This document shows positions 606 to 42,339 of a stretch of DNA of 42,531 bases, in pieces (the stretch's first letter is position 1; each line of letters begins with the position of its first letter). The notes beneath the pieces were generated by a model. It was not told the DNA's origin, searched no databases, and saw nothing but the letters and a program-made list of their open reading frames with translations. A program made the position numbers and the translations under genes. The DNA comes from an uncultured Desulfobacterales bacterium (GTDB taxonomy: Bacteria; Desulfobacterota; Desulfobacteria; Desulfobacterales; C00003060), in assembly GCA_964532395.1 (NCBI GenBank), contig CAZHHS010000001.1:1-42531 (forward strand). Direction: 5' to 3'.

Positions 606-617
606 GGGCAGGGTGCC

Positions 618-4863: not shown

Positions 4864-4882
4864 TTCTCCGACAGGCTCCTAG
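4864..4882. repeat. 19-nt exact repeat TTCTCCGACAGGCTCCTAG (copy 1)
   Basis: Identical to 17348-17366. It lies in the pyrE/J-domain intergenic spacer and includes the pyrE stop codon on the complementary strand. Confidence 0.8.
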
Positions 4883-7060: not shown

Positions 7061-7230
7061 ATGCGATACCCCGGCACCAGCGTTGATACGGTGAGCCAAG
7101 ACCGGAAAAAAGACGATTGCCGGTCGGGCAAGGCATCCAAATACCCAAGGCCTGGACCTAAAGGCAAGATAGTGATATGGGTTAAAGAAAATCCCCGTAT
7201 TTGGGAGCAACGTTTAGCAAGGAGCATCAC

Positions 7231-7701
7231 ATGGCGGACATCGATCTTTCTCAGCTTGGGCCGGTACTCGATTCTTATAGAAACAAGAAAGGGGTCCTAA
7301 TTCCCCTATTACAGGACATCCAGGAAACCTTCGGCTATGTTCCGCCCGAGGCAGTGGAGCTGATCTACGAAGAATTCGGAATTCCCGCTGTTGATACGTA
7401 CGGGGTCCTCACTTTCTACTCGCAGTTTTATCTCACACCACGGGGAAAACATACGATACGGGCTTGCCAAGGGACGGCGTGCTATATAATGGGAGGTCGG
7501 GAAATCCTGGAACAACTAAAGACCACCCTGGACGTTTCGGTCGGGGAAACAACGCAGGACGGGATGTTTACTCTGGAAACGGTGGCTTGTTTGGGATGTT
7601 GTGGCATGGCCCCGGTGATTAATATCGATGACAAGCTTTACGGAAAGTCTTCGATTGCCAAAAGTAAAGTGTTGGTAGAGGAATGCCGGTGCAAGGAATG
7701 A
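7231..7701 (+). CDS. NuoE/HydC/StnA-like thioredoxin-fold [2Fe-2S] subunit
   Basis: 156 aa from ATG 7231, with AGGAG at 7220-7224. Cys pattern RACQGTAC ... ACLGCCGMAP as in the 24-kDa subunit family. Confidence 0.8.
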   Translation: MADIDLSQLGPVLDSYRNKKGVLIPLLQDIQETFGYVPPEAVELIYEEFGIPAVDTYGVLTFYSQFYLTPRGKHTIRACQGTACYIMGGREILEQLKTTLDVSVGETTQDGMFTLETVACLGCCGMAPVINIDDKLYGKSSIAKSKVLVEECRCKE

Positions 7702-7738
7702 TTGCCGCGGAAATACGCAATTGAAAGAGGATACGTGA

Positions 7739-9493: not shown

Positions 9494-9505
9494 GGAAATG
9501 GAAAA

Positions 9506-11599: not shown

Positions 11600-11901
11600 T
11601 GACCGAAATCGGATTCCCCGGTCATCTCTCGTGTCATACATATTGTTGAGTGCTTACCCGAACCTCACACCAAACTGGGAAACAGGCGTTTCCGCAAGCC
11701 TTCTTATACGAATGCGGTTATCTACAAAGTGCAAGTCCGGGATTGGGCCTTCTCGTGGCAAGTACTTGGGTATTGTGGATAACCGCATATACTCGAGTAG
11801 GTTCTCCGTGGGTGCGCCGAGGGCGTTTGATCAAACATTTTTACAATGAAGCTATCGGTTCGAAGCGACCGTTATAGGTGTTCGGGATAGGAGGCCCGGC
11901 C

Positions 11902-14259
11902 ATGGAAGAAAGCAAGATTATCAATGTGGCCATTGTCGGTGGCGGACCAGGCTGCAAAGCCATTATGGACATGATATTTGCCGCCAAACTCAGCCAGCTT
12001 CGTATGAACTTGATCGGTGTGGCCTGCACAAACCCGAAGGCCGTCGGCTACCTCTATGCGAAGGAAAAGGGCATATACACGACCACCGATTACAGGGACT
12101 TGTACGAGTTGTCCGAACTGAGCATGATCATTGAACTCACCGGCCGGGGGGAAGTTGCCAACGAGATCTATCGAACGAAGCCGGACCGGATACGGGTGAT
12201 GGGAAACGTGGCGGCTCGCCTCTTTTGGGATGTGTTTCAAATCGAAGAAGAGCGGATTGAAGAACGGCGGCGGGCGGAAAGAGAATCGCGGGAAAGGGAG
12301 GAGCACCTGCAGGCCATCCTGGACTCCATTCAGACGGGTGTTTTGCTCATTGATGCGGAGACCCACGAGATTGTTGAAACCAATCCCTTGGCATGTCGAT
12401 TGATCGGCCGGGACAAGGAAGAGATCATCGGGCACATATGTCACGAATTCGTATGTCCGGCGAAGCGGGGTAAATGTCCCATCACCGATATGGGACAACA
12501 AATGGACAACTCAGAAAATGTGCTGCTCACATCCGACAAGGGCCGGTTGTCCATTATCAAAACCGTTGTGCCCGTTTTCTTCGAGGGCAAACGGCATCTG
12601 TTGGAGAGTTTTCTGGATATCACGGAAAGAAAAAAGGTCGAGGATGAGTTGCGGGAAAGCCAAGAAAGGTATTACACGGTTCTGGAGGCTTGTCCCGACC
12701 CCGTCGTGGTTTACGACATGAAAGGACGGGGTACCTATATCAACCCGGCTTTTACGAGGGTGTTCGGATGGACCCCGGGAGAAATCCTGGGGATGAAATT
12801 GCAATATGTGCCGAAAGAGAACTGGCCGGAAACAAAAATGATGATCGACAAGGTGCTGGCGGGGGAGAGCTTTACCGGGGTGGAAAGCCGTCGGTATACC
12901 AAGGCGGGGAATATCCTGGACGTCAGTATCAGTGCCGCGATCTATATGGGGCGCGACGGGGGGCCTGCGGGCAGTGTTCATATCCTGCGGGACATCACTG
13001 ATCGAAAGCTGGTAGAAGAGGCCTTGAAAAAGGCGCATGACACCTTGGAAAGACGGGTGTCCGAGCGTACACGTGAACTGGCGGAGACAACGAACCAGTT
13101 GAGAGAAGAACTCCTGGAACGGCAACGCACGGAAGAGGCCTTGAGAGAGAGTGAAGAGCGGTTTCGTGTTCTGAGTGCCGAGTTGGATTCCGGCCTGTCG
13201 GAGGTATTTGAGGCGTTAGAAGAGATTTCATCAGGCAATCCCGAGGTTCGGATACCGGAAGAGTCATCCCTCCCATCGATTTCCGAATTAAAGCATACGG
13301 TAAACCTCACAGCAAAGAGCCTTACGGAAATCGTAGATTTGTCGCATGAATTCGCCATAGGATTAGCCGAACACTTTGAAAAACTGGACCGGGTTTGCAA
13401 AGGAGATCTTTCGGCACGAATATCCGGCGTCTCCAGGGTGGAGATATTGGAATCGCTACGAAAGGTAACCAACCTGATGATCGAAAGCGTTTCCAGGGAA
13501 CTGTCCGAGCGTAAACGAACGGAAAAAGCCCTGCGCCGGGCACAAGCCGATTATGAAGCCAAGGCTCAGGCGTTAAAGACGGCAAACGAAGAGCTGTCAC
13601 AATATGCCTATGTGGTGTCCCATGACCTGAAGGCCCCACTGCGTGCCATTCACAGCTATGGCGATTTTCTGCGAGAAGACCTTGAGGGCTCGCTGGGTCC
13701 CGACCAGGAAATGTATCTCAACGGCCTTAATCGGGCCATTCGGCAAGGCGAAGAGCTGGTAGACGATCTCTTGGAGTTTTCCAGGGTGGGTAAACGGCGC
13801 GGACCCATAGAGGCCGTCGACCTGGGTGAGTTTTTCAAGGATCTGGTTCTCACCCTTGACCTGCCTTCAGACGTTGATGTATATATAGCCGAGGATTTTC
13901 CTGAGATCGAGGCTGATGTGACGTTGCTTCGCCAGATCTTTCGAAATCTCATCATCAATGCCGTAAAGTTCAACCATTCGGAGAAAAAGCATGTTGAGTT
14001 GGGTTGGCGTGATCGCAAGGACACCTATGAGCTTACCGTGCGAGATAACGGCATCGGAATCGATCCCCAGTACGCAGAACAAATATTCCGCGTCTTTCAA
14101 AGACTCCATACCCGAAAGGAGTATGACGGAACGGGGCTTGGTTTGGCCATCGTTAAAAAGGCTGTGCTCAAGTTGAACGGTACGGTGGGGGTGGAATCGG
14201 CCCCGGGTAAAGGAAGCACGTTCTTCGTAACCCTACCGCAGACCCAGAGGAGAGAATAG
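11902..14259 (+). CDS. soluble multi-PAS sensor histidine kinase with Rossmann-like N-terminal domain
   Basis: 785 aa from ATG 11902, with AGGAGG at 11888-11893, and no TM segments. It has two PAS-like blocks and coiled-coil linkers. H-box YVVSHDLKAPLRAI, and HATPase N/G boxes (NLIINAVKF, DNGIGI, GTGLGLAIV). Confidence 0.85.
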   Translation: MEESKIINVAIVGGGPGCKAIMDMIFAAKLSQLRMNLIGVACTNPKAVGYLYAKEKGIYTTTDYRDLYELSELSMIIELTGRGEVANEIYRTKPDRIRVMGNVAARLFWDVFQIEEERIEERRRAERESREREEHLQAILDSIQTGVLLIDAETHEIVETNPLACRLIGRDKEEIIGHICHEFVCPAKRGKCPITDMGQQMDNSENVLLTSDKGRLSIIKTVVPVFFEGKRHLLESFLDITERKKVEDELRESQERYYTVLEACPDPVVVYDMKGRGTYINPAFTRVFGWTPGEILGMKLQYVPKENWPETKMMIDKVLAGESFTGVESRRYTKAGNILDVSISAAIYMGRDGGPAGSVHILRDITDRKLVEEALKKAHDTLERRVSERTRELAETTNQLREELLERQRTEEALRESEERFRVLSAELDSGLSEVFEALEEISSGNPEVRIPEESSLPSISELKHTVNLTAKSLTEIVDLSHEFAIGLAEHFEKLDRVCKGDLSARISGVSRVEILESLRKVTNLMIESVSRELSERKRTEKALRRAQADYEAKAQALKTANEELSQYAYVVSHDLKAPLRAIHSYGDFLREDLEGSLGPDQEMYLNGLNRAIRQGEELVDDLLEFSRVGKRRGPIEAVDLGEFFKDLVLTLDLPSDVDVYIAEDFPEIEADVTLLRQIFRNLIINAVKFNHSEKKHVELGWRDRKDTYELTVRDNGIGIDPQYAEQIFRVFQRLHTRKEYDGTGLGLAIVKKAVLKLNGTVGVESAPGKGSTFFVTLPQTQRRE

Positions 14260-16837: not shown

Positions 16838-17263
16838 ATGAGAAGACAAGCCGAAAAAGAGGGAAAAAATCTTCGGACCGAACGACGTCACTACGAACGA
16901 CTGGCGGTACAAGACGGCGCATTCGCGTCACTGAGACCACACTTTGCCATTATCGGACAGATCGTCAACATCAGTCAAGGAGGAGTGGCCTTCCGCTATG
17001 TCGCCAGCGTGCCCCGAACCCCGGAAACCAATCGGCTTGACATCGTGCTCACCGACGGCAGTTTTTGTATAGAAAAGCTCAATTTCAGAAGCGTTTGGGA
17101 CGTTCCCACACCCCAGGAGTTTGCTTGCGGTCTCATAACCTATCGCCATTGCGGTGTGGAATGGGGAAAGCTTGATCCGTCGCAAAAAGCCGATCTGGGC
17201 TATTTTATGAAATGCTATACCACCGATGGCTCCCATGATGCGTTTTTGGCGTCCATACATTAA
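16838..17263 (+). CDS. PilZ-domain protein (putative c-di-GMP receptor)
   Basis: 141 aa. RRHYER (RxxxR) and NISQGG ((D/N)xSxxG) lie at the expected spacing. Confidence 0.65.
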   Translation: MRRQAEKEGKNLRTERRHYERLAVQDGAFASLRPHFAIIGQIVNISQGGVAFRYVASVPRTPETNRLDIVLTDGSFCIEKLNFRSVWDVPTPQEFACGLITYRHCGVEWGKLDPSQKADLGYFMKCYTTDGSHDAFLASIH

Positions 17264-17347
17264 GCACCTACCCCACATCGGCGTCCACGTCGTCGTTCGG
17301 GCCTGATCGTCCGTCATAGATCGTAGATCGCCTTGCGAAGCCGGGAG

Positions 17348-17366
17348 TTCTCCGACAGGCTCCTAG
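17348..17366. repeat. 19-nt exact repeat TTCTCCGACAGGCTCCTAG (copy 2)
   Basis: Identical to 4864-4882. It directly abuts the candidate UAS at 17367-17382. Confidence 0.8.
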
Positions 17367-17382
17367 CGGCAGATTTTTGCCC
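17367..17382. promoter_or_regulatory. candidate enhancer (UAS) palindrome CGGCAGATTTTTGCCC, GGCA-N6-TGCC core
   Basis: Its reverse complement GGGCAAAAATCTGCCG matches 21748-21763 (GGGCAAAAAACTGCCG) at 15 of 16 positions. Its centre lies about 96 bp upstream of the GG of the sigma-54 promoter at 17469. Confidence 0.55.
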
Positions 17383-17468
17383 ATTCTATACATCCTCCCT
17401 TTGGCGGCCGTTTTTTAAAAGTTCCCGTGAAGTCATATGTTTAAGCTCTTTTTTTATCGTGAGCTTGG

Positions 17469-17484
17469 TGGCACGTGGCTTGCT
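17469..17484 (+). promoter_or_regulatory. sigma-54 (-24/-12) promoter
   Basis: TGGCACgtggcTTGCT is a perfect match to TGGCAC-N5-TTGCW. It lies 57 nt upstream of the CBS gene ATG at 17541. Confidence 0.75.
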
Positions 17485-17540
17485 TTGTCCTCCCTACAGC
17501 GAGGGAGTATTCATTCGGGCTTGGTAACGGGAGACGCCAT

Positions 17541-18026
17541 ATGGCGGAAAAGCGTATAAAAGATTTAATGCTTTCTCTGGAAGCCTTTTCGCATATATCC
17601 CCCCAAGAAAAGGTCGGTCATGCCGTCAAGGTTTTAGAAACCAGAAAGCAACAGGGGTTGCCCGCTTTTTTGTTGGTGGTGGAAGTGATCGATCAGAAAG
17701 AAGAAATTCTCGGAATGTTGTCACCCGAAACGCTCCTCAGTCACATGGAGTCTTCCCGAGAGCCGACGGAGGAACTCCCCATATTCTGGCAGGGTCAGTT
17801 TCAGGAGGAATGTGAGGCTGTTTTCGGTAACGCCATCGCGGATGTGATGTCTCCGGTTACGCGGGTCATCCACGGGACCGGTACCTTAACGGAGGCGGTT
17901 CATCTGATGCACTTACAGGGCACGGATTGGCTTCCCGTGGTTGCCGAACAATCGGTGGTGGGCATAATCTTGAAAGACGCCCTGATTGAAGAGGTGTTCC
18001 AGGCCGCAAAGGCTGTGGCGGCCTGA
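17541..18026 (+). CDS. CBS-pair domain protein
   Basis: 161 aa from ATG 17541. Two CBS-like repeats (IKDLM...ILGMLSPETLL and IADVMSP...VVGIILKDALIE). Confidence 0.65.
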   Translation: MAEKRIKDLMLSLEAFSHISPQEKVGHAVKVLETRKQQGLPAFLLVVEVIDQKEEILGMLSPETLLSHMESSREPTEELPIFWQGQFQEECEAVFGNAIADVMSPVTRVIHGTGTLTEAVHLMHLQGTDWLPVVAEQSVVGIILKDALIEEVFQAAKAVAA

Positions 18027-20494: not shown

Positions 20495-21577
20495 TCATCT
20501 ATCACTCACTGCGGCGTCCCTGGCCCTTTTCCGTTGAAACTTGATATTATAATCACTCATTTTCTGCCTCAATGTGCGCGGCTTGATTTCTAAAAGTTGC
20601 GCTGCGGCAGCCCGCCGTCCTTTGGTGATTTCCAAGGCGCGAATAATCATGGTTTTTTCGATTCGCTGCCGGGCCGTGCGCAGCGGTTCCACACCGCCGG
20701 GAATGGGATGATCGGTGGCGCCTTCACCCGGATGGTCCGGCGAGGAGGTCTCCGACGCCTCCTGTTGGGAGACGGCGGATGTAAGTTCTTCCGGAAAATC
20801 GTCCGGTGTGACCCATGTCTTTGGGGCCATCAAAGACAAGCGTTCCATCAGGTTCTTGAGTTGACGGATGTTGCCGGGCCACTCGTAATTCACCAGGTAT
20901 TTAACGGCGTCATCGCTGAGCGTGATCTTCTCTTTCTGGTATATTTTAGCAAAGCGTTCCGTAAAATATGCCACCAAATGGGGGATGGCCTCTTTCCGCT
21001 TTCTCAACGGCAACAGGTTGATAGGAATGACCTGTAGCCGATAGTAGAGGTCTTTCCTGAAGTGTCCGGTCTCTACCGATTCGGCCAGATTTTTGTTTGT
21101 TGCGGCGATGATCCGTACATCCACCTGTGTGGGAGCTTCGCCGCCGATTCTGCGAAAGCACCCGTCTTCCAACACACGAAGAAAGTTTGCCTGGTTGGGT
21201 GGGGAGATTTCCGAAACCTCATCGAGAAAAAGCGTCCCTCGGTGGGCCTGTTCAAATCTGCCTTTTGTGCGTTTGGTGGCCCCCGTAAAGGCACCCACTT
21301 CGTGGCCGAAGAGTTTGCTCTCAAACAATTCCCCGGAAAGTGTACCACAGTTTACGGGTACAAAGGGTTTGTCTTTACGCCCACTCTTTTGGTGCACAAT
21401 ACGTGCCAGCAGTTCTTTTCCTGTTCCCGACTCCCCGTATATCAACACGTTGGCATCAAAACGGGCAATCTGTTGAACCGCTTTCATGACGGCGCGCATG
21501 TGCGCGCTGACCACGACGAACTCAGGAAAAAGGTCCGGTTCTATCTGGCCGTGCAGGGCGACCTGCTGAGGGCTCAT
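20495..21577 (-). CDS. sigma-54-dependent transcriptional activator (bEBP) without N-terminal regulatory domain
   Basis: 360 aa. Walker A GESGTGKE, GAFTGA loop (GHEVGAFTGA), Walker B LFLDEV and a C-terminal Fis-type HTH (AAAQLLEIKPRTLRQKMSDYNI). Only about 25 aa precede the AAA+ core. Confidence 0.85.
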   Translation of the reverse strand: MSPQQVALHGQIEPDLFPEFVVVSAHMRAVMKAVQQIARFDANVLIYGESGTGKELLARIVHQKSGRKDKPFVPVNCGTLSGELFESKLFGHEVGAFTGATKRTKGRFEQAHRGTLFLDEVSEISPPNQANFLRVLEDGCFRRIGGEAPTQVDVRIIAATNKNLAESVETGHFRKDLYYRLQVIPINLLPLRKRKEAIPHLVAYFTERFAKIYQKEKITLSDDAVKYLVNYEWPGNIRQLKNLMERLSLMAPKTWVTPDDFPEELTSAVSQQEASETSSPDHPGEGATDHPIPGGVEPLRTARQRIEKTMIIRALEITKGRRAAAAQLLEIKPRTLRQKMSDYNIKFQRKRARDAAVSDR

Positions 21578-21852: not shown

Positions 21853-21868
21853 TGGCACATGACTTGCT
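21853..21868 (+). promoter_or_regulatory. sigma-54 (-24/-12) promoter of the Mrp-type operon
   Basis: TGGCACatgacTTGCT is a perfect TGGCAC-N5-TTGCW. It lies about 90 nt upstream of the mrpE-like GTG at 21960 and is divergent from the bEBP gene. Confidence 0.75.
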
Positions 21869-21959: not shown

Positions 21960-22544
21960 GTGCACGTGGACAAGTCAGATCCGAAAAACAGGATCGGGCC
22001 CGAACCTCCCGGGGAAAAAACAGGCACAAGCGAAACGCAACCGTCCAGCAGACTCCATGTTGACTCCTTCATCCTTACCTTTGTTATCATGTTCGCCATC
22101 TGGATACTTCTGTCCGGGAAATTCGACGGCTTTCATTTGAGTTTGGGCCTTATCTCCTGTGCCATCGTGGCTTACCTCTCATCGGATCTACTCTTTTCCC
22201 CCCATGCCCGACAAAACCGCTTTTCGCAGTGGGTGCGTTTCATTCGGTACATCCCGTGGCTGTTGATACAGGTCTTTAAGGCGAGCTTCCATGTTACGTA
22301 CCTGGTATTTCACCCCCGGATGATGGAACTCATCGACCCAAAGATTATTAAGTTTCGCAGTCACCTCAAAAGGGATTTGGCGCTGGTTGCATTTGCCAAT
22401 TCGATTACGCTCACCCCGGGTACAATTACCGTTTATGTGTCAATCGACGGCGATTTTAAGGTGCACGCCATCGACCCGGCTTCCGGGGATCCTCTGCCGG
22501 GAGAAATGGAAACCCGGGTGGCTCGGGCGTTCAACGAGGTCTGA
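21960..22544 (+). CDS. mrpE: Mrp/Mnh antiporter-type subunit E
   Basis: 194 aa, GTG start after GGAGAAGGGAAGG. The FAIWILLSGKFD...LGLISC core and length fit MnhE. It is first in an E-F-G-B-C-D ordered cluster. Confidence 0.6.
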   Translation: MHVDKSDPKNRIGPEPPGEKTGTSETQPSSRLHVDSFILTFVIMFAIWILLSGKFDGFHLSLGLISCAIVAYLSSDLLFSPHARQNRFSQWVRFIRYIPWLLIQVFKASFHVTYLVFHPRMMELIDPKIIKFRSHLKRDLALVAFANSITLTPGTITVYVSIDGDFKVHAIDPASGDPLPGEMETRVARAFNEV

Positions 22545-22545
22545 T

Positions 22546-22824
22546 ATGGACACGTTCTTTTTGTTTTCCGGCTTATACATGGCCTTTCTCATGATCCTCT
22601 CTCTTTACAGGGGTGTCTTCGGTCCCACGGTGGCGGATCGGATGATCGGTGTCAACGCCATAGGAAGCAAGACGACGGTTTTGCTGATTTTGATCGGGTT
22701 CATGTATCATCGCGTAGAGATGTTTGTCGATATTGCTCTTGCCTACGCCATGTTAAACTTTATCGCCGTATTGGCGGCTTCAAGGTATTTTCAGAAACGC
22801 AAAGGATTATACGATGAGGCCTAG
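22546..22824 (+). CDS. mrpF: Mrp/Mnh subunit F
   Basis: 92 aa from ATG 22546, 1 nt after the upstream stop. Three TM helices. The RGVFGPTVADRMIGVNAIGSKT motif region is typical of MnhF/PhaF. Confidence 0.7.
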   Translation: MDTFFLFSGLYMAFLMILSLYRGVFGPTVADRMIGVNAIGSKTTVLLILIGFMYHRVEMFVDIALAYAMLNFIAVLAASRYFQKRKGLYDEA

Positions 22825-22854
22825 GATCTCAAATTCCGTCATGGGGAGGGGGCA

Positions 22855-23181
22855 ATGATGGATGTAATTGTGGTTGTGCTTCTGCTTGCCGGGCTTTTCT
22901 TTTTTACCGGCGGCGCCATCGGCATACTCCGGTTTCCCGATTTTTACTCCAGACTTCATCCCGCCGGTAAGCTGGACACGCTGGGCCTTTTTTTGTCAAT
23001 GACCGGTCTTGCTTTGTTCGGCCTTCATCACTTTTCGCTGGGTGCCTTACTGACCAGTATAAAGATTATGCTGATCGTCGTTTTTGTCTTTCTGGCCAGC
23101 CCGACAGCCACTCACGCCATTGTGGACGCCGGTGTCAGGGCGGGTCTTGAACCGTGGGTCAAAGGAGAAGAGAGGAGGTAG
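22855..23181 (+). CDS. mrpG: Mrp/Mnh subunit G
   Basis: 108 aa. GAIGILRFPDFYSRLHPAGKLDTLG is the characteristic MnhG/PhaG N-terminal motif. Confidence 0.75.
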   Translation: MMDVIVVVLLLAGLFFFTGGAIGILRFPDFYSRLHPAGKLDTLGLFLSMTGLALFGLHHFSLGALLTSIKIMLIVVFVFLASPTATHAIVDAGVRAGLEPWVKGEERR

Positions 23182-23185
23182 CCCT

Positions 23186-23431
23186 GTGCTGTGGCAACTT
23201 GACTTGGCGATTCTCACCCTGGTGGTCATTGCCGCCGTCGGGTCTTTGATGGTCAAGGATCTCCTGGGAGCCGCCATACTCTTCGGGGCCTATAGTTTCA
23301 TGATGTGTCTGCTTTGGACCATTATGGGAGCGGTGGATGTTGCCTTTACCGAGGCTTCGGTAGGGGCCGGCGTGAGTACGGTTTTTTTCGTTGCGGCCGT
23401 ATTCCGAACCACAAGGAGGACGAAAGATTGA
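23186..23431 (+). CDS. MbhD/DUF4040-like small membrane subunit (MrpB-N/MrpA-C related)
   Basis: 81 aa from GTG 23186, with GGAGG at 23174-23178. Three hydrophobic helices. Its position between G and B matches Mbh/Mbx-type clusters. Confidence 0.5.
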   Translation: MLWQLDLAILTLVVIAAVGSLMVKDLLGAAILFGAYSFMMCLLWTIMGAVDVAFTEASVGAGVSTVFFVAAVFRTTRRTKD

Positions 23432-24258
23432 AATTTCTAGGACTGGTCATTGCCCTTATAACAGGCGTCTTTTTGGTCTATGCGGCGGTGGACTTTCCCG
23501 ACTGGGCGGATCCCGAGTCGCCGGCCAGTACCCATGTTTCACCCCATTTCATCGAAAAGACCATGGAGGAAACCTCTGTTCCCAATATCGTTACCGCCGT
23601 CCTGGCCGACTACCGTACCTTTGACACCATGTTTGAGGCCACGGTCATTTTTTCGGCCGCCGTGGTCTGCTTCTTCGTATTGCGCACCTTCCTCAAAAAA
23701 GAGGAGCGCGAGGAAAGGCTATACCGGCACGTCCTGACAGGGGTGACGATTCGGGTGAAAGAAGGGGGGAGAATACCGCCGTCAGACGATTTTGAACGAA
23801 TCGACGATTCCTGGATTCCTCACGACCTGATTATCAAGACCATATGCCGTTTGATGGTACCCTTTATTCAGATCTTTGCTCTCTATGTCGTCGCCCACGG
23901 TCATCACAGTCCCGGCGGTGGTTTCCAGGGCGGCGTTATTTTGGGGGCCAGCGTGATCGTACTGGCCATGTCCCATGATTTGCGCACGACGCTCCAGCGA
24001 ATGCGGGAAAAGGTCGTCGGCATTTTGTGTGCCGTAGGGGTCTTGCTTTATGCAGGTACGGGAGCCTTGTGTTTGTTGCTGGGCATGAACTTCCTTGATT
24101 ACAGCGCCCTGGCTCCTATCCTCGGGGTGGGTCCCGTAACCGCGCGATCCCATGGCATTCTGATCGTTGAGATAGGTGTGGCCATTGCGGTGATGACGGC
24201 CATGGTATGGATATACAATAATGTGTCGTCGAGGGGTAATTATAATGAGGGGCTCTAA
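23428..24258 (+). CDS. mrpB: Mrp/Mnh subunit B-like (MbhE+MbhF-like)
   Basis: 276 aa from TTG 23428, with AAGGAGGA RBS, overlapping the upstream stop. PNIVTAVLADYRTFDTMFE and VVAHGHHSPGGGFQGGVILGA are MnhB-domain hallmarks. Confidence 0.7.
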   Translation: MKFLGLVIALITGVFLVYAAVDFPDWADPESPASTHVSPHFIEKTMEETSVPNIVTAVLADYRTFDTMFEATVIFSAAVVCFFVLRTFLKKEEREERLYRHVLTGVTIRVKEGGRIPPSDDFERIDDSWIPHDLIIKTICRLMVPFIQIFALYVVAHGHHSPGGGFQGGVILGASVIVLAMSHDLRTTLQRMREKVVGILCAVGVLLYAGTGALCLLLGMNFLDYSALAPILGVGPVTARSHGILIVEIGVAIAVMTAMVWIYNNVSSRGNYNEGL

Positions 24259-24261
24259 GTC

Positions 24262-24669
24262 ATGACTGATTTCGCCCAACTGGTAGTGGCAAAATACAAT
24301 TATTGGATCTACATTACGCTCATGATGATCGGCCTGTACGCAATCATCTCCAAGAATAATCTGGTCAAAAAGATCCTGGGCATGAACATCTTTCAAACAG
24401 CGATTATTCTTTTCTATGTCTCGATCGGGGCGAAAAAAGGGGCGACGATCCCTATTTTGGAACACGGCCACGGTCCGGCTCATGGGGCCGGTTCTCATGT
24501 GGTCCACGCGGCGGACTACATGAATCCCTTGCCTCATGTGCTCATGCTCACCGCCATCGTGGTCGGTGTGGCAACGTTGGGTGTGGCATTGGCCCTGGCC
24601 CTTAAGGTGTACAGGCATTACCATACCTTGGAAGAAGATGAAATCCTGGCCCAGATAAGGAAGAAATGA
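24262..24669 (+). CDS. mrpC: Mrp/Mnh subunit C (NuoK-like)
   Basis: 135 aa. IIS..NLVKKILGMNIFQTA and NPLPHVLMLTAIVVG are typical MnhC blocks. It carries an unusual His/Gly-rich loop. Confidence 0.75.
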   Translation: MTDFAQLVVAKYNYWIYITLMMIGLYAIISKNNLVKKILGMNIFQTAIILFYVSIGAKKGATIPILEHGHGPAHGAGSHVVHAADYMNPLPHVLMLTAIVVGVATLGVALALALKVYRHYHTLEEDEILAQIRKK

Positions 24670-26168
24670 GCACACAATATCCCGCACTCGTGGTTGTCGT
24701 TCCGCTCCTGTCGGCGTTTCTGATCAGCGCCGCCGGATGGGCCAACAAAAGGCTTTGCTTTCCCATCGCCGTGGTGGCTTTGGCTATATCCACCTATTCT
24801 TGCTTTGGACTGCTCGTCAGGGTGTTGAATGAGGGCGTCATCGTCTATCGATGGGCGGGATGGGATCCTCCCTGGGGAATCGCCTACTATGTGGATCACC
24901 TCAACGCGCTTGTCTTGACCGTTGTCGCCGTCGTTTCCCTCATCAACCTGGTAGCCACCAAAAAGAGCATAGACGAAGAGTTTCCGGACAAGTTGGGACC
25001 CTTTTATTCTCTGTATGTGCTTATGGTGACCGGCTGCTTAGGCATCGTTGCGACGGGCGATGCCTTTAACCTGTATGTGCTTTTGGAAATATCGGCTTTA
25101 ACGGGATATGGTCTTCTGGCCATGGGGAGCAAGGGCCGGGCGCCGCTGTCCACCCTTAACTATCTTTTTATGGGTACCATCGGGGCCTGCTTCTATCTTC
25201 TGGGCATCGGATATCTTTACATCGTAACAGGCTCTCTCAATATGGTCGACATAGCGGGAATATTGCCTTCTCTCTATCAGTCAAAGGCGGTAATGGCGGC
25301 TTTTATTATCTGTATGGTGGGCGTATGGCTGAAGATGGCCCTTTTCCCGCTTCATGCCTGGTTGCCCAATGCTTATACCTATGCCCCATCTGCGGCCAGC
25401 AGTCTGATTGCCCCGCTGGCAACCAAGGTAATGATCTACGTCATGATTCGTCTGATGCTCACGGTATTTACGCCGGAGTTTGCATTCACTGCTTTGTCGG
25501 TAAGCAACGCCGTGGTGTGGCTTGCGGTTATCGCTATCGTTGTGGGGGCGGTGTTGGCCCTACAGGAACGCAGCCTTAAAAAGATGTTGACCTATGTTAT
25601 CGTGGCTGAAGTCGGCTATATGGTGGGAGGCGCCTGGCTTGGAAACAGTGCGGGGATGACCGGAGCGATACTCCATATCGTAAATGACGCCCTAATGACA
25701 CTTTGCGTTTTCCTTGCTGTGGGAAATATTGTCTATAAGGCAAAAGGGCATTATTTTGAGGACCTTCAGGGCCTGTTCCGAAAGATGCCCTTTACTATGG
25801 GGGGCTTTGTGATCGGGGCCCTTTCCATTATTGGGGTGCCTCCGACATGCGGTTTTTTTAGCAAGTGGTATCTTATTTCAGGCGCCATTAAGGCCGGCCA
25901 GTATCATTTCATGGCAGCGCTTCTATTCAGCAGTTTGGTCTGCGTGGTTTTGTTCTTCCGGATTATAGAAATCGGCTACTATGAACCCTTCAGTGAAGAA
26001 CACGGACATGGTCACGATCACCATCAGGAAACTTCCATGGAGGAGGCGCCACTCGGCATGGTGGTTCCACTTTTAATTGTGGCCGCCGGATTGGTGGTGG
26101 TCGGACTATACACCGGTGACATCGTGGAGCATATCATCCGATTTGCCATACCGAAAGGTCTCGCTTAG
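24666..26168 (+). CDS. mrpD: antiporter-like subunit 1 (MrpD/NuoN-M family)
   Basis: 500 aa with about 14 TM helices. Proton_antipo_M-type core (LALQERSLKKMLTYVIVAEVGYM, HIVNDALMTLCVFL). ATGA overlap with mrpC. Confidence 0.8.
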   Translation: MSTQYPALVVVVPLLSAFLISAAGWANKRLCFPIAVVALAISTYSCFGLLVRVLNEGVIVYRWAGWDPPWGIAYYVDHLNALVLTVVAVVSLINLVATKKSIDEEFPDKLGPFYSLYVLMVTGCLGIVATGDAFNLYVLLEISALTGYGLLAMGSKGRAPLSTLNYLFMGTIGACFYLLGIGYLYIVTGSLNMVDIAGILPSLYQSKAVMAAFIICMVGVWLKMALFPLHAWLPNAYTYAPSAASSLIAPLATKVMIYVMIRLMLTVFTPEFAFTALSVSNAVVWLAVIAIVVGAVLALQERSLKKMLTYVIVAEVGYMVGGAWLGNSAGMTGAILHIVNDALMTLCVFLAVGNIVYKAKGHYFEDLQGLFRKMPFTMGGFVIGALSIIGVPPTCGFFSKWYLISGAIKAGQYHFMAALLFSSLVCVVLFFRIIEIGYYEPFSEEHGHGHDHHQETSMEEAPLGMVVPLLIVAAGLVVVGLYTGDIVEHIIRFAIPKGLA

Positions 26169-26170
26169 TA

Positions 26171-27646
26171 ATGGAAACGGTCGTATCCATCAAGCCGTTG
26201 CTGGCTGTTCTTGTTTCTCTTCTAGTCACCCCCATACTGGCTTCAAGTCGAGCGCCGAATGTCCGGGAGATGTGGACATTTGTCGCGGCAGGGGTAAAAT
26301 TCCTGCTGGTTTTGTCCATGCTGCCGGTCATCCTTAATGGTACCCAAATCGTATATACGGTCGCTGAAGTGATACCGGGAGCCGCCATTAAATTCAAGGT
26401 CGATTCCTTTGGTATGCTCTTCGCTCTGGTCTCTTCGTCCTTGTGGATTGTAACCTCGGTCTACTCCATAGGTTATATGCGTGGGCTGAAGGAACACAGC
26501 CAGACCCGCTATTTTTGTTTCTTCGCCTTTGCACTGTCCGCCACTATCGGGGTTGCCTTTGCCGGAAACTTGTTAACGATGTACCTCTTTTATGAGATGC
26601 TTTCCTTGGCTACCTATCCCTTGGTCACGCATCATCAAGACCATGAGGCGCGAAGCTCGGGGCGCAAATATCTCTTATACATTGTGGGAACCTCGATCGG
26701 ACTGGTCTTGCCGGCTATGCTAATTTGTTACGATCTGGCAGGGACCCTGGAATTTGGGACGCAGGGTTTTTTAGCCGGAACGGGGGCGTCCAAGTCTTTG
26801 ATGGCGGTGCTGCTGGTTCTTCTCATCTTCGGGTTTGCAAAAGCGGCCATTATGCCCTTTCATTCATGGCTTCCTGCAGCGATGGTCGCACCTACGCCGG
26901 TTAGTGCTTTGCTGCATGCAGTGGCTGTTGTGAAAGTCGGTGTTTTCAGTGTTGTTCGAGTCATAACAGAAGTGTTTGGGACTGATTTGCTGTTTTCTTT
27001 AAATTTCAGCCCCATTATCCTCTTTTTCGCCTCTGCTACCATTCTTGTGGGCTCACTCATCGCCCTGTCTCAAGACAATCTTAAACGCCTTTTGGCTTTT
27101 TCCACCATCGCACAGCTTTCATACATTGTACTCGGCGTGGGGTTGCTCTCCCCTCTGGGAATGACCGGTGGAATGCTCCATATCGCCATGCACGCATTTG
27201 GCAAGATCACTCTCTTTTTTTGTGCCGGAGCGATCTTCGTGGCTACCGGCAAAAAGAACATCAGCGAGATGATCGGTATCGGCAGGAGAATGCCGGTGAC
27301 CATGGGCGCCTTTTTTATCGCTTCTCTAAGCATTACCGGTGTCCCACCCGGCGGCGGCTTCATTAGTAAATGGTATTTGGTCCTGGGGGCACTGCAAGCG
27401 CAACAAGTAGCGGTTCTTGTGGTGCTCCTGGTGAGCTCATTTCTGAATGCCTGTTACTTTCTGCCGATCGTCTACAAAGCATTTTTTTGTCCTCCGAAAG
27501 AGGTTATGTTTAAAGGCGGATTTCAAGAGGCCCCTGTTTTCTGTGTGGTTCCTCTGGTAATAACGGCCGTGATTTCCATCATTCTGCTCCTTTTTCCGCA
27601 ACCGTTTTTGCAGTTGGCCACAATGACCGTGCAAGGCTTGATGTAA
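26171..27646 (+). CDS. mrpD: antiporter-like subunit 2 (MrpD/NuoM family)
   Basis: 491 aa. FYEMLSLATYPLV, PFHSWLPAAMVAPTPVSALLHAVAVVKVG and AFSTIAQLSYIVLG are classical NuoL/M/N-MrpA/D motifs. Confidence 0.85.
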   Translation: METVVSIKPLLAVLVSLLVTPILASSRAPNVREMWTFVAAGVKFLLVLSMLPVILNGTQIVYTVAEVIPGAAIKFKVDSFGMLFALVSSSLWIVTSVYSIGYMRGLKEHSQTRYFCFFAFALSATIGVAFAGNLLTMYLFYEMLSLATYPLVTHHQDHEARSSGRKYLLYIVGTSIGLVLPAMLICYDLAGTLEFGTQGFLAGTGASKSLMAVLLVLLIFGFAKAAIMPFHSWLPAAMVAPTPVSALLHAVAVVKVGVFSVVRVITEVFGTDLLFSLNFSPIILFFASATILVGSLIALSQDNLKRLLAFSTIAQLSYIVLGVGLLSPLGMTGGMLHIAMHAFGKITLFFCAGAIFVATGKKNISEMIGIGRRMPVTMGAFFIASLSITGVPPGGGFISKWYLVLGALQAQQVAVLVVLLVSSFLNACYFLPIVYKAFFCPPKEVMFKGGFQEAPVFCVVPLVITAVISIILLLFPQPFLQLATMTVQGLM

Positions 27647-27657
27647 GGATATTTACC

Positions 27658-27798
27658 ATGACCGAAGAAAGAAGCGACGAAATAGAAGGCAAGATGGCGC
27701 TGTCCCATGCACCCGTGCCACCCTACAGGAAGGTCTTTTTTATAGCCATTACGGTGGGGGTGCTCTATCTCGGGCTGATTCTTTTTATGACCATTTGA
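27658..27798 (+). CDS. small single-TM protein (46 aa, not in supplied ORF track)
   Basis: ATG 27658 to TGA 27796-27798. The product is MTEERSDEIEGKMALSHAPVPPYRKVFFIAITVGVLYLGLILFMTI. It is tightly packed between two operon genes on the same strand. Confidence 0.45.
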   Translation: MTEERSDEIEGKMALSHAPVPPYRKVFFIAITVGVLYLGLILFMTI

Positions 27799-27841
27799 AA
27801 TAAATAGAGTCCGCCTCGTTTTGAAAGACAGGAAAACGAAA

Positions 27842-28102
27842 ATGAAAGAAGAAAAACAAGAGGGGAAAAGATATCTATTTGATGACCCCAAAAACGTGAA
27901 TAGACTTTTGGGGACTTTTTACGCCTCATTGATGGTGCTTCTCCTGGTGGAGTTCGTGGTTCATAAGCACCCGCATTTTCCTTGGGAAAAGTGGCCGGAA
28001 TTCTATTGTGTGTATGGTTTTGTTGCCTGTGTGGTATTGGTTATCGTGGCAAAATATATCTTGCGCCCTCTGGTTATGAGACGAGAGGACTATTATGATT
28101 AG
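27842..28102 (+). CDS. small two-TM membrane protein of unknown function
   Basis: 86 aa from ATG 27842 (the ORF track starts at TTG 27821). Two hydrophobic helices flank HKHPHFPWEKWPEFY. It overlaps the next gene by 8 nt. Confidence 0.5.
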   Translation: MKEEKQEGKRYLFDDPKNVNRLLGTFYASLMVLLLVEFVVHKHPHFPWEKWPEFYCVYGFVACVVLVIVAKYILRPLVMRREDYYD

Positions 28103-29864
28103 TACCGTTCCCCCCGCTGCCATATTTATCGTCGGAGGGTTGTTGGTTCCTTTCTTTAAGGGTAAGTGGAAAAGTGCGTTCCTGTTGCTCATTCCAGTTG
28201 TCGGATTTCTTAACCTGATTCACATACCGGAGGGAACCCATTGGGCCGTTGATTTCATGGGCTATAACCTGGTCTTTGGAGAAGTGGACAGGCTGAGCCT
28301 CGTATTCGGCTACATTTTTCACCTCATTACCTTTATAGCCCTTCTTTACGCCCTTCACGTGACAGACGACCTGCAACATGTGGGGGGACTGATCTATGCG
28401 GGGAGTTCCTTGGGGGTCGTCTTTTCGGGAGACCTTTTCTCTTTCTTCATCTTCTGGGAAACGCTTACCTTCAGCTCCGTATTATTGATTTGGACGCGAA
28501 GAACAAAGGCGTCTACAGCTGCCGGCTACAGATATGCCTTGGTCCATGTCGTGGGAGGGCTGTTCCTGCTGGCGGGGATCGTATTTTACGTCATTGAAAA
28601 GGGCTCCATCGAATTCGGATATATTGGATTGGACGGCCTGGCCAGTTATTTGATTTTTATCGGTTTCGGCATCAACTGTGCCTGGCCCATTCTCCACCCG
28701 TGGCTAACCGATGCCTATCCTGAAGCAACCATTACGGGAGCCATATTCTTGAGCGCTTTTACCACCAAGACAGCAGTCTATGCGCTGGCCAGGGCATTTC
28801 CCGGCACGGAGGCACTGATATGGATAGGAGCTCTCATGACGGGCTTTCCTATCTTTTACGCGGTCATCGAAAACGATCTCCGACGGGTTCTTGCCTACAG
28901 CCTGATCAACCAGGTGGGATTTATGGTCTGTGGTATCGGTATCGGCACGGCTCTTGCCATCAATGGCGCCGTGGCCCATGCCTTCAATGATATCTTGTTT
29001 AAAGCCCTGCTGTTTATGTCCATGGGGGCTGTTATGTACCGAACGGGTAAGATCAACGGAACCGCCTTGGGCGGACTGTACAGGACCATGCCCTTGACCT
29101 GTATTTTCTGTATGGTCGGGGCGGCATCCATATCCGCTTTTCCCCTGTTTAGCGGTTTTGTGAGTAAGTCCATGGTCATGGATGCGGCCGGGAAAGGTCA
29201 TATGCCGATTATATGGTTTGTCCTGCTTTTTGCTTCGGCCGGTGTATTCCATCACGCAGGCATCAAGATACCGTTTTTCGCATTTTTCGGCCATGATTCC
29301 GGTATGCGGCCCAAGGAAGCACCACTACATATGTTGCTGGCCATGGGTATTACCGCATTTTTGTGTATCTTTATCGGCTCTTTCCCCGGTCCTTTATACA
29401 GCTTGCTTCCCTATCCGGTCGATTATGAACCCTACACGATGGCTCATGTCGTCGGACAGACCCAGATACTATTTTTCTCGGCCCTGGCCTTTACCCTGCT
29501 GTTGCTTTCCGGAATATATCCGGCGGAAATGCGGTGTGTCAATCTGGACGCCGACTGGTTCTATCGTAAAGGGGGACGGCTTTTGTTCGGGGTGTTGGAT
29601 AATGTGTTCAACGGCATTAACAAGGCCGGAGAAGTGTTTGCTCGAGGGGTGGCCGGGGCTTTGGGCAGGCTATCCAGAAACGTTCCCGAGATAATTCTAC
29701 TCATAGTCATGGTTCCGTTATGGACTGCCGGTGGGGCAAAGGGAGAAAAACTCCAGGGGAAAATTGTGCGTGCGCGTGCCGCTCTGGAAACCGGAACGGC
29801 ACCCGTAGGCATCAGTGCGGCGGTGGCTACTATTTTTTTGGTTTTTCTTTTCGTTTTGATCTGA
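28095..29864 (+). CDS. antiporter-like subunit 3 (MrpA/MrpD/NuoL family) with C-terminal extension
   Basis: 589 aa. Proton_antipo_M-type core (FIFWETLTFSSVLLIW, LAYSLINQVGFMV, HAFNDILFKALLFM). A ~110-aa C-terminal tail ends in a final hydrophobic helix. Confidence 0.75.
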   Translation: MISTVPPAAIFIVGGLLVPFFKGKWKSAFLLLIPVVGFLNLIHIPEGTHWAVDFMGYNLVFGEVDRLSLVFGYIFHLITFIALLYALHVTDDLQHVGGLIYAGSSLGVVFSGDLFSFFIFWETLTFSSVLLIWTRRTKASTAAGYRYALVHVVGGLFLLAGIVFYVIEKGSIEFGYIGLDGLASYLIFIGFGINCAWPILHPWLTDAYPEATITGAIFLSAFTTKTAVYALARAFPGTEALIWIGALMTGFPIFYAVIENDLRRVLAYSLINQVGFMVCGIGIGTALAINGAVAHAFNDILFKALLFMSMGAVMYRTGKINGTALGGLYRTMPLTCIFCMVGAASISAFPLFSGFVSKSMVMDAAGKGHMPIIWFVLLFASAGVFHHAGIKIPFFAFFGHDSGMRPKEAPLHMLLAMGITAFLCIFIGSFPGPLYSLLPYPVDYEPYTMAHVVGQTQILFFSALAFTLLLLSGIYPAEMRCVNLDADWFYRKGGRLLFGVLDNVFNGINKAGEVFARGVAGALGRLSRNVPEIILLIVMVPLWTAGGAKGEKLQGKIVRARAALETGTAPVGISAAVATIFLVFLFVLI

Positions 29865-29982
29865 TATAGGGTGGCGAAGGACATGCAACAGAAACGTTTG
29901 CGTATCCTCTCGTGTAGGCGGGTTGTTTCGTTGAGTCGGCGTTTGCTCGTCCCGTAAAGGAATGGGTCCGAAGGAGAGAGGT

Positions 29983-30468
29983 ATGGCTTCTGTACGAGAC
30001 TTAAAAGAGCTGGTTTTGTTTGAAGGTTTGCCGGACGATTTCCTGGAACGGCTTGTTCCGATGGTGCAAGAAAAGTCCTTGGGGGAACGGGAGATCATTT
30101 ATGAGCCGGGCGCCGAGGCCAGCGAATTTTACTCGTTGAGCAAGGGAAAAGTGTTGCTGGAAGCAGAACTTGCCCCCAACTTCATTATTTCCGTGGGCGC
30201 AATAAAACCGGGATATTCCTTTGGCTGGTCCGCTCTTTTTCCACCGAAGGCTACACATACATCCTACGCAGTATGTTCTGAGCCGAGTGATGTGTTCGTT
30301 TTTCCCGCTCAGGAGCTGACGGCCTTTCTCGGCCGGGAGCGAGAGAACGGATATCTAGTGATGAAGAAAGCCGGGAAGATTCTGGAAAACCGACTTGAGC
30401 GCAGAACCGCTCAGTTCTTGAAGGTGATCGGTAAGCATCCGGAAATCGGGACGCTTTTGGGAGTGTAG
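29983..30468 (+). CDS. stand-alone cyclic-nucleotide-binding (cNMP/Crp-type effector) domain protein
   Basis: 161 aa from ATG 29983, with GGAGAGAGG RBS. LFEGLPDDFLERL...GEREIIYEPGAEASEFYSLSKGKV...FGWSAL is a beta-barrel cNMP-like pattern. No HTH. Confidence 0.6.
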   Translation: MASVRDLKELVLFEGLPDDFLERLVPMVQEKSLGEREIIYEPGAEASEFYSLSKGKVLLEAELAPNFIISVGAIKPGYSFGWSALFPPKATHTSYAVCSEPSDVFVFPAQELTAFLGRERENGYLVMKKAGKILENRLERRTAQFLKVIGKHPEIGTLLGV

Positions 30469-41681: not shown

Positions 41682-41796
41682 ATAGGTGGATTATTACATT
41701 GGGGGATTGGCTTCACGGTGTTGAGACCGGGGTTAATCCCCCGAATTGTGTGGGGACGTTGAACCGAAACTCAGAGCGAAGGCGGGTATATATCCA

Positions 41797-42339
41797 ATGA
41801 ATGAGGCAAATGGAACGATCCCGGATAACCCCCCGAGCGATACTCAGGAAACCGACGCAGGCGGCGTGGTCATCCTGGGTATCGGGAACCTACTCTTGTC
41901 GGATGAGGGTATCGGGGTTCACGTGGCCAACCGATTGCTGGAGATGGATCTTCCTCCGGGCGTGCGGGTCATCGAAGGCGGAACCGACGGCTTTCGATTA
42001 ATGAATGTCGTGACAGGGGCTGACCGGGTGGTGGTGGTCGATGCTGTCAAAGGGGGGGGAGAGCCGGGGTCCATATATCGGTTTAACATTGAGGACGCCC
42101 CGTCATCACCGGACACCTTCAAGACCTCGGTTCACCAGATCGGTATACTTGAAGTGATTCACTTTTCGGAATTTCTGGGCAAAACGCCTGAGGCCACCGT
42201 CATCGGTGTGGAACCCAAGTCGATCGAGATGTCCATGGAGCTTTCGCCGGAGATTCAGGAGAAGGTGCCACGGGTCATCGAGTTGGTCCTTGAAGAAGTC
42301 AACAAGTATCTGTCCGAAACAGGCAAGTCCGCGTCTTAG
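41797..42339 (+). CDS. hydrogenase maturation endopeptidase family protein (HyaD/HybD/HoxM-like)
   Basis: 180 aa from ATG 41797. VVILGIGNLLLSDEGIGVHV, VVVVDAV and SVHQIG match the Glu/Asp-Asp-His metal-ligand blocks of this family. Confidence 0.7.
   Translation: MNEANGTIPDNPPSDTQETDAGGVVILGIGNLLLSDEGIGVHVANRLLEMDLPPGVRVIEGGTDGFRLMNVVTGADRVVVVDAVKGGGEPGSIYRFNIEDAPSSPDTFKTSVHQIGILEVIHFSEFLGKTPEATVIGVEPKSIEMSMELSPEIQEKVPRVIELVLEEVNKYLSETGKSAS

Follow-up and report, generated by a model that had tools for sequence, protein, structure and literature searches.

The DNA analysed here (hereafter the window) is a stretch of 42,531 nucleotides from an uncultured Desulfobacterales bacterium (contig CAZHHS010000001.1 of assembly GCA_964532395.1). 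Eleven open reading frames (ORFs) of the + strand are packed into its positions 21960-29864 and nine of them encode relatives of Mrp antiporter subunits, including three large antiporter-like proteins that we call D1, D2 and D3 (Table 1). We consider it likely that this cluster is a stand-alone "Group 3" Mrp cation/proton antiporter (cation:proton antiporter family 3, CPA3) with an enlarged proton arm. An earlier reading made from the letters alone (the sequence-only reading) had offered a stand-alone multi-channel cation/proton translocator as its first option, and this is the option favoured by the comparative evidence presented below.

Gene families were assigned with Pfam and NCBIfam profile scans, which placed nine of the eleven products and left the two small membrane proteins, s46 and s93, without a family. 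Taking the most likely or best-supported candidate as the start codon of each gene, we computed intergenic spacings of +1, +30, +4, -4, +3, -4, +2, +11, +43 and -8 nt, in gene order. The gene content and the Mbh/Mbx-like E-F-G-B-C-D order described in the sequence-only reading were borne out by these assignments, and the recomputed spacings agree with the tight coupling and the 30-nt and 43-nt gaps it had noted. The mrpG product scored 71.4 bits against TIGR01300 (cutoff 63.1) and the mrpC product 109.5 bits against NF005624 (cutoff 95). The MbhD/DUF4040 gene has the ribosome-binding site GAGGAGG, and its product aligns with PDB chains 6u8y_D and 6cfw_D; the fusion protein encoded by gene 5 reached 229.5 bits against NF009161 and aligns with 6u8y_E, 6cfw_F/E and 6z16_B. 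The mrpE orthologue of locus L001, a 78%-identical relative, is likewise 194 aa long.

Table 1. Positions of the features discussed, in the window and in two related loci.
Feature	Sequence	Positions	Strand	Remarks
Sigma-54 (-24/-12) promoter consensus	window	21853-21868	+	TGGCACATGACTTGCT; 0 mismatches; ~92 nt 5' of mrpE start
mrpE/mbhA-like	window	21960-22544	+	194 aa, GTG start; PF01899 MNHE 1.1e-33
mrpF/mbhB-like	window	22546-22824	+	92 aa; PF04066
mrpG/mbhC-like	window	22855-23181	+	108 aa; PF03334 3.1e-23
MbhD/MbsD-like DUF4040	window	23186-23431	+	81 aa, GTG start; PF13244 9.6e-19
MbhE+MnhB/MbhF fusion (gene 5)	window	23428-24258	+	276 aa, TTG start; PF20501+PF04039
mrpC/mbhG/NuoK-like	window	24262-24669	+	135 aa; PF00420 5.6e-21
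D1, MrpD/MbsH-type antiporter-like subunit	window	24666-26168	+	500 aa; PF00361
D2, antiporter-like subunit, 14-transmembrane core only	window	26171-27646	+	491 aa; PF00361 and weak PF00662
s46, single-transmembrane protein	window	27658-27798	+	46 aa; no named family
s93, two-transmembrane protein	window	27842-28102	+	86 aa; no named family
D3, MrpA-N/NuoL/MbsH'-type antiporter-like subunit	window	28095-29864	+	589 aa; PF00361
Sigma-54 enhancer-binding activator	window	20495-21577	-	AAA+ and Fis-type helix-turn-helix, no receiver domain; divergent from operon
Stand-alone cyclic-nucleotide-binding-domain protein	window	29962-30468	+	168 aa; PF00027
Cluster with nuo genes, L051	L051 (OZ242180.1)	~400-13327		nuoL, nuoM, nuoN-like by Pfam; nuoK read by eye
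Cluster with nuo genes, L055	L055 (CAXXXF010000004.1)	1-13323		nuoJ-nuoK-nuoL-nuoM-[E..D3]-nuoN

The cluster co-encodes homologues for each of the seven subunit functions of an Mrp complex (A N-domain, A C-domain, B, C, D, E, F, G). Group 3 Mrp systems are those without mrpA, with one or more mrpD and with an irregular gene order (PMC5703873, PMC8415708). In agreement with this description, we found no long mrpA, three mrpD-like genes and the order EFG-B-C-D-D-x-x-D, and the largest subunit, of 589 aa, has no fused MrpB-like domain.

We then compared the three large subunits with proteins of solved structure. Among PDB chains, D1 matched best MbsH (6u8y_H, 214 bits) and MrpD (6z16_D, 164 bits), D2 matched MbhH (160 bits), NuoL (148), NdhF (142) and MrpA (138), and D3 matched MbhH (118), MbsH' (115) and MrpA (99). 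Against NCBIfam equivalog models, D2 scored 665 bits with NF006236 (cutoff 663) and D3 748 bits with NF009310 (cutoff 564). The AlphaFold2 model of D3 (predicted local distance difference test 88.4, predicted template modelling score 0.83) has a 14-transmembrane (TM) core, after which come TM15 (residues 449-471), a long helix spanning 487-545 and a C-terminal TM at 571-588; residues 485-530 have the high helical hydrophobic moment expected of a surface-lying amphipathic helix of ~45 residues. Foldseek searches with this model put MrpA (7qru_A and 6z16_A), NdhF and NuoL on top, with more than 600 aligned columns each, while MrpD- and MbhH-type matches aligned over ~510 columns. As the L-type chains align over more columns, the C-terminal extension of D3 seems to add to the match. 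D3 is, as modelled, the counterpart of MrpA TM1-16, NuoL or MbsH', and according to the published mapping table (PMC8415708) MbhD together with the MbhE half of gene 5 corresponds to MrpA TM17-21. MrpA is therefore split rather than absent, because D3 matches its TM1-16 and MbhD and MbhE match its TM17-21. The statement of the sequence-only reading that there is no classical MrpA thus has to be amended: the gene is split and the function retained, as seen in the lateral helix and TM16 of D3, the TM8 His/Lys motif of D2 and the presence of MbhD and MbhE.

A neighbour-joining bootstrap tree was built with references from related loci (NuoL, NuoM and NuoN from the Latescibacterota loci L051 and L055; MrpA and MrpD from the canonical mrp cluster of L020). 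D1, D2 and D3 formed three clades that cross phyla, with bootstrap values of 84, 100 and 100%, respectively, and they share 23-28% identity with each other. This low identity and the separate cross-phylum clades rule out a recent duplication as their source, and the three read as old orthologue groups. The deeper nodes join D3 with MrpA and NuoL (55%) and D1 with MrpD, NuoM and NuoN (63%). The tree does not assign the three subunits individually to NuoL, NuoM or NuoN. A natural D2::D3 fusion protein of 1090 aa (P0203) argues for the two subunits being adjacent in the complex. Two other D3-like proteins, P0196 and P0236, have C-terminal extensions ~150 aa longer, with ATEFD(R/K)xIDxGY repeats in P0196.

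The architecture is widespread and conserved. Close database relatives of D3 number in the thousands; the 120 best are all at least 77% identical, come mostly from Desulfobacterales and from metagenome-assembled genomes (MAGs) of Thermodesulfobacteriota and, where named, are called "Na(+)/H(+) antiporter subunit D". Clustering at 50% left 911 clusters with E <= 1e-30. The genes themselves are already known, as public annotation and the NCBIfam equivalog models name Na+/H+ antiporter subunits. A scan with an 8-sequence alignment as query and one genome per species returned at least 80 loci, in Desulfobacterota, Nitrospirota, Brocadiaceae and Leptospirales, in Alpha-, Beta- and Gammaproteobacteria (including cultured Shewanella, Alteromonas and Microbulbifer), and in Verrucomicrobiota, Latescibacterota, Gemmatimonadota, Acidobacteriota, Planctomycetota and Myxococcota. 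By mapping the window proteins, we counted the gene order in the 60 listed loci that have at least 6.5 kb upstream of D3. These loci represent at least 10 phyla (Desulfobacterota, Nitrospirota, Brocadiaceae, Proteobacteria, Verrucomicrobiota, Gemmatimonadota, Latescibacterota, Acidobacteriota, Planctomycetota and Myxococcota), and E-F-G-B-C-D1-D2-s93-D3 is kept in 56 of them; the remaining four have a B-like gene between E and F (two), are partial (one) or consist of s93-D3 alone (one). Such a conserved arrangement far exceeds chance.

Some loci showed particular arrangements. The variant cluster with a B-like gene between mrpE and mrpF occurs in L007, L011 and as the second cluster of L004 (9165-18003), and in its MrpF the Asp of the DR motif is replaced (LNR/FNR) and Ser stands at the equivalent of Asp38. 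In L020 (12291-17923; Candidatus Brocadiaceae bacterium S225), a canonical Group 1 mrpABCDEFG cluster lies ~0.5 kb downstream of the eleven-gene cluster, so that the two Mrp types are neighbours in this genome. Immediately 5' of mrpE, L001 (1134-3663) and L002 (1741-3632) have a transporter of the CitMHS/Na-sulfate-symporter type and a gene with a beta-carbonic-anhydrase domain of the LCIB type, the LCIB-type domain of L001 being fused to a response-regulator receiver. These neighbours recall the bicA/mrp and SbtA/mnh links of Nitrospira and cyanobacteria.

We also looked for redox partners of the cluster. Profile scans of the 40 largest ORFs of the window revealed no NuoB/C/D/H/I or hydrogenase subunits, and no MbhM/NuoH-like anchor or MbhJKLN module was seen in the scanned window ORFs. 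In a flank census, 246 ORFs (112 upstream, 134 downstream), the two closest to the cluster on either side in ~60 loci, were scanned with Pfam; none of the NuoB/C/D/H/I, hydrogenase, Rnf or NuoEF families recurred among them, and the only repeated neighbours were a cyclic-nucleotide-binding protein, universal stress proteins, two-component genes and CitMHS/Na-sulfate-type transporters. In most genomes examined the cluster has no redox enzyme beside it, and nuo genes alongside it are absent from the window and from 58 of the 60 loci. The absence of a redox module noted in the sequence-only reading is consistent with both surveys. A truncated Mbh/Mbx operon or other hydrogenase remnant, looked for by synteny in the relatives, is ruled out because no redox or anchor family recurs in the flank census. 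Rnf and the soluble NuoEF-GltD enzyme, which had been put forward as candidate partners, adjoin the cluster in none of the relatives examined and are rejected as conserved partners. A DAB-type pump for CO2 or inorganic carbon was also discarded, since neither the window scans nor the 25 commonest families of each flank census included DabA (PF10070); the LCIB-type domain of L001 is a different family.

The two small proteins appear to belong with D3. s93 lies directly before D3 in 64 loci, usually with its stop overlapping the D3 start (by 8 nt in the window), and it has 4516 database clusters, almost all unnamed or "hypothetical". Its motifs are, in order, FDxPxNV, TM1, HxHxxxWE, FYxxYGFVACV within TM2, and R-x-EDYYD. 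Neither small protein had a Pfam family even at E = 1, and s93 had no NCBIfam family and no PDB match better than E = 0.97; these Pfam and PDB searches rule out s93 as a homologue of MbhI, of NuoL TM15-16 or of any solved chain. s46 has an N-terminus of the ELxHEPVPGYR type (window copy ALSHAPVPPYRK), and its homologues stand at the same position in ~24 loci. In L028, L026 and L004 the s46-s93-D3 unit stands apart from the other genes of the cluster or is duplicated, and an orphan s93-D3 pair occurs in L059 (9522-11695; Gammaproteobacteria MAG OZ244833.1), where no other mrp gene lies within 10 kb. As the unit moves or duplicates separately and an orphan pair exists, both small proteins belong with D3, and s93 is best described as a conserved, unnamed two-TM partner of this subunit. 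By eye, the neighbours of the orphan pair are peptidase-, aminotransferase- and dehydrogenase-like ORFs.

We asked which residues of the proton channels and of the cation path are kept. D1 has the canonical TM5 Glu, TM7 Lys, TM8 Lys and TM12 Lys, as read from its sequence, and D2 has the TM5 Glu, TM7 Lys, TM8 Lys and His, and TM12 Lys, with the MrpA/NuoL-type TM8 motif LLHAVAVVKVG. D3 retains E122, K225 and K358, and in the alignment its Asn194 (window 28674-28676) stands at the TM7 Lys position of MbhH, MbsH' and MrpA. Of the scored loci, 25 have Asn and 40 have Lys at this position. The Asn form, of ~590 aa, is found in Desulfobacterota, Nitrospirota, Brocadiaceae and others, and s46 accompanies it in 22 of the 25 loci by regular-expression search and in two more by eye (L004 and L023); the Lys form, of ~562 aa, is found in Proteobacteria, Gemmatimonadota and others and has s46 in none of its 40 loci. 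s46 homologues thus occur only with the Asn form.

The Na+ path proposed for Mrp includes E687, D771, D776 and E780 of MrpA and H34, F41 and D121 of MrpB (PMC9568556). In the window, the Glu58-type residue of MbsD is kept in the FTEAS motif of MbhD, which we take as the E687 equivalent, and the equivalents of D771, D776 and E780 are kept as D-Y-R-x-x-D-T-x-x-E in the MbhE half of gene 5. The MnhB half of this protein keeps the equivalents of H34 and F41 in GHHSPGGGF (family motif GHxxPGGGF) and probably has Glu at the D121 position, where the alignments to 7qru_B and 6z16_B disagree.

Based on homology and on solved relatives, a working model can be drawn. By homology, MrpE, MrpF, MrpG and the MnhB half of gene 5 make up a cation (Na+) module, while MrpC, MbhD and the MbhE half of gene 5 make up a connecting module; D1 is the MrpD/MbsH-like subunit, D2 a core like MrpA/NuoL, and D3 the MrpA/NuoL/MbsH'-like subunit. 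From the solved structures of Mrp, MBH (membrane-bound hydrogenase), MBS (membrane-bound sulfane sulfur reductase) and complex I, the expected line-up is [E G F B]-[MbhD MbhE C]-D1-D2-D3, in which the amphipathic helix of D3 would run back over D2 and D1 and clamp them. s93 and s46 would bind D3, s93 being translationally coupled to it and s46 joining only where D3 has lost its TM7 Lys. The antiporter-like subunits would let protons in down the proton-motive force, and charge changes along the central Glu/Lys axis would expel Na+ (or K+) by way of the MrpA-C/B/F/G region. With a third channel the H+ per cation ratio would presumably rise, which may allow cations to be extruded or the cytoplasm to be acidified when the membrane potential is low or when external Na+ or pH is high. 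In the source genome, expression would depend on sigma-54 and on the neighbouring activator.

Upstream of the operon, the exact match to the sigma-54 consensus reported in the sequence-only reading is indeed present in the window; its significance is confined to this lineage, as only two of 60 related loci have a site with at most one mismatch. A sigma-54 promoter as a family-wide feature is therefore ruled out, and sigma-54 control of the cluster is lineage-specific. With one mismatch allowed the window holds three matches against 1.35 expected by chance, so that the motif alone is weak evidence; the divergent activator gene, with PF00158 (6.5e-68), PF25601 and PF02954 domains, supports the promoter call. 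From its position and this promoter, the activator is the probable regulator of the operon. A second exact consensus (TGGCACGTGGCTTGCT, 17469-17484, + strand) overlaps position 17475, the GTG start listed for a CBS-domain ORF (17475-18026), whose true start probably lies further downstream. On the other side of the operon, the gene of the cyclic-nucleotide-binding protein follows D3 in 12 loci of the flank census, all of them Desulfobacterota (for example L001, 11823-12305), and in the window a weak terminator-like hairpin (29895-29920) lies between the two genes. This protein may be a twelfth operon gene or a regulator, its operon membership being uncertain.

The rest of the window contains several genes of redox enzymes. 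Positions 7201-11599 encode NuoE-like, NuoF-like and NuoG-N::GltD proteins, the NuoG-N part being a 2Fe-2S/4Fe-4S domain; this trio resembles soluble transhydrogenases of the Stn/Nfn type or bifurcating enzymes. A complete rnf cluster (rnfCDGEA and B) lies 5 kb downstream of the mrp cluster, and its final gene (39588-41681) encodes a 697-aa RnfB::GltD fusion in which PF04060 and ferredoxin domains are followed by Fer4_20 and Pyr_redox_2, a GltD-like NAD(P)H oxidoreductase. The only hydrogenase-related gene of the window encodes a HycI-type maturation protease (41746-42339), and its place at the edge suggests a hydrogenase locus just outside. Many two-component genes are found elsewhere in the window.

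Several points weigh against a simple stand-alone Na+/H+ antiporter. In L051 and L055, the only two loci with nuo genes alongside, the whole cluster lies between nuoM and nuoN, on one strand and with short gaps (a third Latescibacterota locus, L061, is without such embedding). Because the cluster sits inside the nuo operon in these two genomes, it may in some lineages be linked functionally to complex I. Moreover, MrpF carries Asn37 (window 22654-22656) in place of Asp38 (B. pseudofirmus numbering), a conserved and functionally important residue (PMC9568556), and in the subclade that includes the window the TM7 Lys of D3 has become Asn; as both residues are replaced, ion specificity and pathway may differ. 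These changes, Asp to Asn in MrpF and Lys to Asn in D3 with its s46, are the chief grounds for caution. The N/M/L-type labels of the large subunits are approximate, since the deep D1/D2/D3 branches are weak (28-63% support). Our literature search returned only passing mentions of three-subunit Group 3 Mrp systems and no biochemical or structural study of any member; likewise, no homologue of the whole cluster was found already characterised. Finally, we infer in which order the subunits assemble, what the lateral helix does, the stoichiometry and which way transport runs.

We considered whether the cluster could instead serve a redox-driven ion pump as its membrane arm, with a soluble or anchoring partner encoded elsewhere (Rnf, NuoEF-GltD, a hydrogenase or complex I). 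The gene order is indeed that of the MBH and MBS membrane arms (PMC8415708, PMC7684303), the Rnf, the NuoE/NuoF/GltD enzyme and the HycI protease share the window, and two Latescibacterota place the cluster between nuoM and nuoN. We nonetheless regard such a pump as very improbable: the major window ORFs are without an MbhM/NuoH-like anchor or NuoB/C/D/I-like gene, nothing of this kind recurs in the flanks of ~60 relatives, Rnf and NuoEF are not among the nearest neighbours in other loci, and D2 and D3 already give an MrpA-type, proton-driven input, which canonical Mrp has instead of a redox module. It is somewhat easier to imagine, although still improbable, that the transported ion is not Na+ and is instead K+, Ca2+ or protons only, the MrpF aspartate of the proposed Na+ entry path being missing. 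Asn stands at the Asp38 position in 53 of 55 related loci, while Asp is retained in 6u8y_B (MbsB), 6cfw_B (MbhB), three solved MrpF chains including 6z16_F and 7qru_F, and the canonical MrpF (17220-17504) of the same Brocadiaceae genome, L020; in addition, Mrp systems specific for K+ or Ca2+ are known (Ito et al. 2017, PMC5703873). On the contrary, the equivalents of MrpA E687, D771/D776/E780 and MrpB H34 are kept, and entry of Na+ via MrpF is itself debated (PMC9568556).

A less unlikely alternative, which we hold as a minority possibility, is that the same complex runs in reverse or in both directions and converts a Na+ gradient, such as one made by Rnf, into proton-motive force. The complete rnfCDGEAB 5 kb downstream and the host, an anaerobic Desulfobacterales-like lineage, fit such a role, and gradient conversion by Mrp with Rnf has reportedly been proposed in Methanosarcina acetivorans. 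Na+-coupled transporters also adjoin the cluster in relatives (CitMHS/Na_sulph_symp in L001; bicA and nhaB, PMC7784846). The Rnf linkage, however, is not conserved in relatives, and the sequence does not set the direction, which is a matter of physiology and not of the identity of the complex.

Several known systems resemble this probable Group 3 antiporter. One close in layout is the stand-alone Group 3 Mrp of P. furiosus (mrpEFGBB'CD, PF1147-53; Haja et al. 2021, PMC8415708), which has the E-F-G-B-B'-C-D order seen here, a content equal to the first seven window genes, the MrpA C-terminal domain in separate small genes and no redox module; its antiporter-like subunits number one and it lacks an input module of the MrpA type, whereas the window adds D2, s46, s93 and D3 with its lateral helix. 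MBS (mbsABCDEGH, PMC7684303) shares the gene order and is collinear with the first seven window genes; D1 is closest to MbsH (214 bits), gene 5 is a fusion like MbsE, and D3 resembles MbsH' with its lateral helix and TM16. MBS has MbsM and an MbsJKLN redox module with two antiporter-like subunits, while the window has neither anchor nor redox module, three antiporter-like subunits and two additional small proteins. Group 1/2 Mrp complexes (B. pseudofirmus 7QRU, A. flavithermus 6Z16, Dietzia 7D3U) share the seven functions, most of the Glu/Lys channel residues and most residues of the proposed Na+ site. They have an intact MrpA and the order ABCDEFG, in contrast to the window, where MrpA is split into D3 (and D2), MbhD and MbhE, the order is EFG-B-C-D, one antiporter-like subunit is added, and MrpF and TM7 of D3 carry Asn.

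The cyanobacterial Group 3 clusters, mrpCD1D2EFGAB of Aphanothece halophytica and mnh slr2006-2013 of Synechocystis with NdhD5 and NdhD6, are similar in having no long mrpA, several mrpD-like genes and short A and B genes, but their order is permuted (CDD/EFGAB versus EFGB/CDD...D in the window) and they have two large subunits instead of three. As cited in PMC5703873, the Aphanothece cluster is reported to act in E. coli as a Na+/H+ antiporter, and both clusters have been linked to Na+-coupled bicarbonate uptake (PMC4390856). In Ca. Nitrospira alkalitolerans, two additional NuoM/NuoL-like genes accompany a Group 3 mrp beside bicA and nhaB (PMC7784846), probably the cluster type of the window mentioned in passing. 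With the membrane arm of complex I (NuoN-NuoM-NuoL and NuoK), the window shares three antiporter-like subunits, the last with TM15, lateral helix and TM16; D3 superposes on NuoL and NdhF, and MrpC is a homologue of NuoK. Compared to complex I, the window is without NuoH, NuoA, NuoJ and the Q and N modules and has an MrpEFGB cation module.

If the complex is an ordinary Na+/H+ antiporter, the finding modestly extends the diversity of Group 3 Mrp, and on the side of annotation s46 and s93 are unnamed and the third large subunit is labelled merely "subunit D". We also put forward, tentatively and as something that we rather doubt than expect, that these clusters form a distinct Mrp class: a free-standing, proton-motive-force-driven arm of three pumps and a lateral helix, like that of complex I, set on a Na+ module, with two integral subunits not recognised before, s93 as obligate partner of D3 and s46 compensating for the lost TM7 Lys, and with a cation path altered by the Asp-to-Asn change of MrpF. 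If true, this class would be related to the complex I P-module as an evolutionary cousin or an intermediate, and would give a redox-free model of coupling among several antiporter-like subunits. For complex I and its relatives, the main question still to be answered is how charge changes pass through a row of such subunits, and with it why complex I needs three of them and a lateral helix. In a stand-alone three-subunit Mrp, stoichiometry and coupling could be measured with ion gradients as the sole input. The cluster is carried by cultured Shewanella, Alteromonas and Microbulbifer strains and by many anaerobes, and its natural variants (Lys or Asn at TM7 of D3 with or without s46, the Asn of MrpF, the orphan s93-D3 pair and the D2::D3 fusion) would offer targets for mutagenesis.

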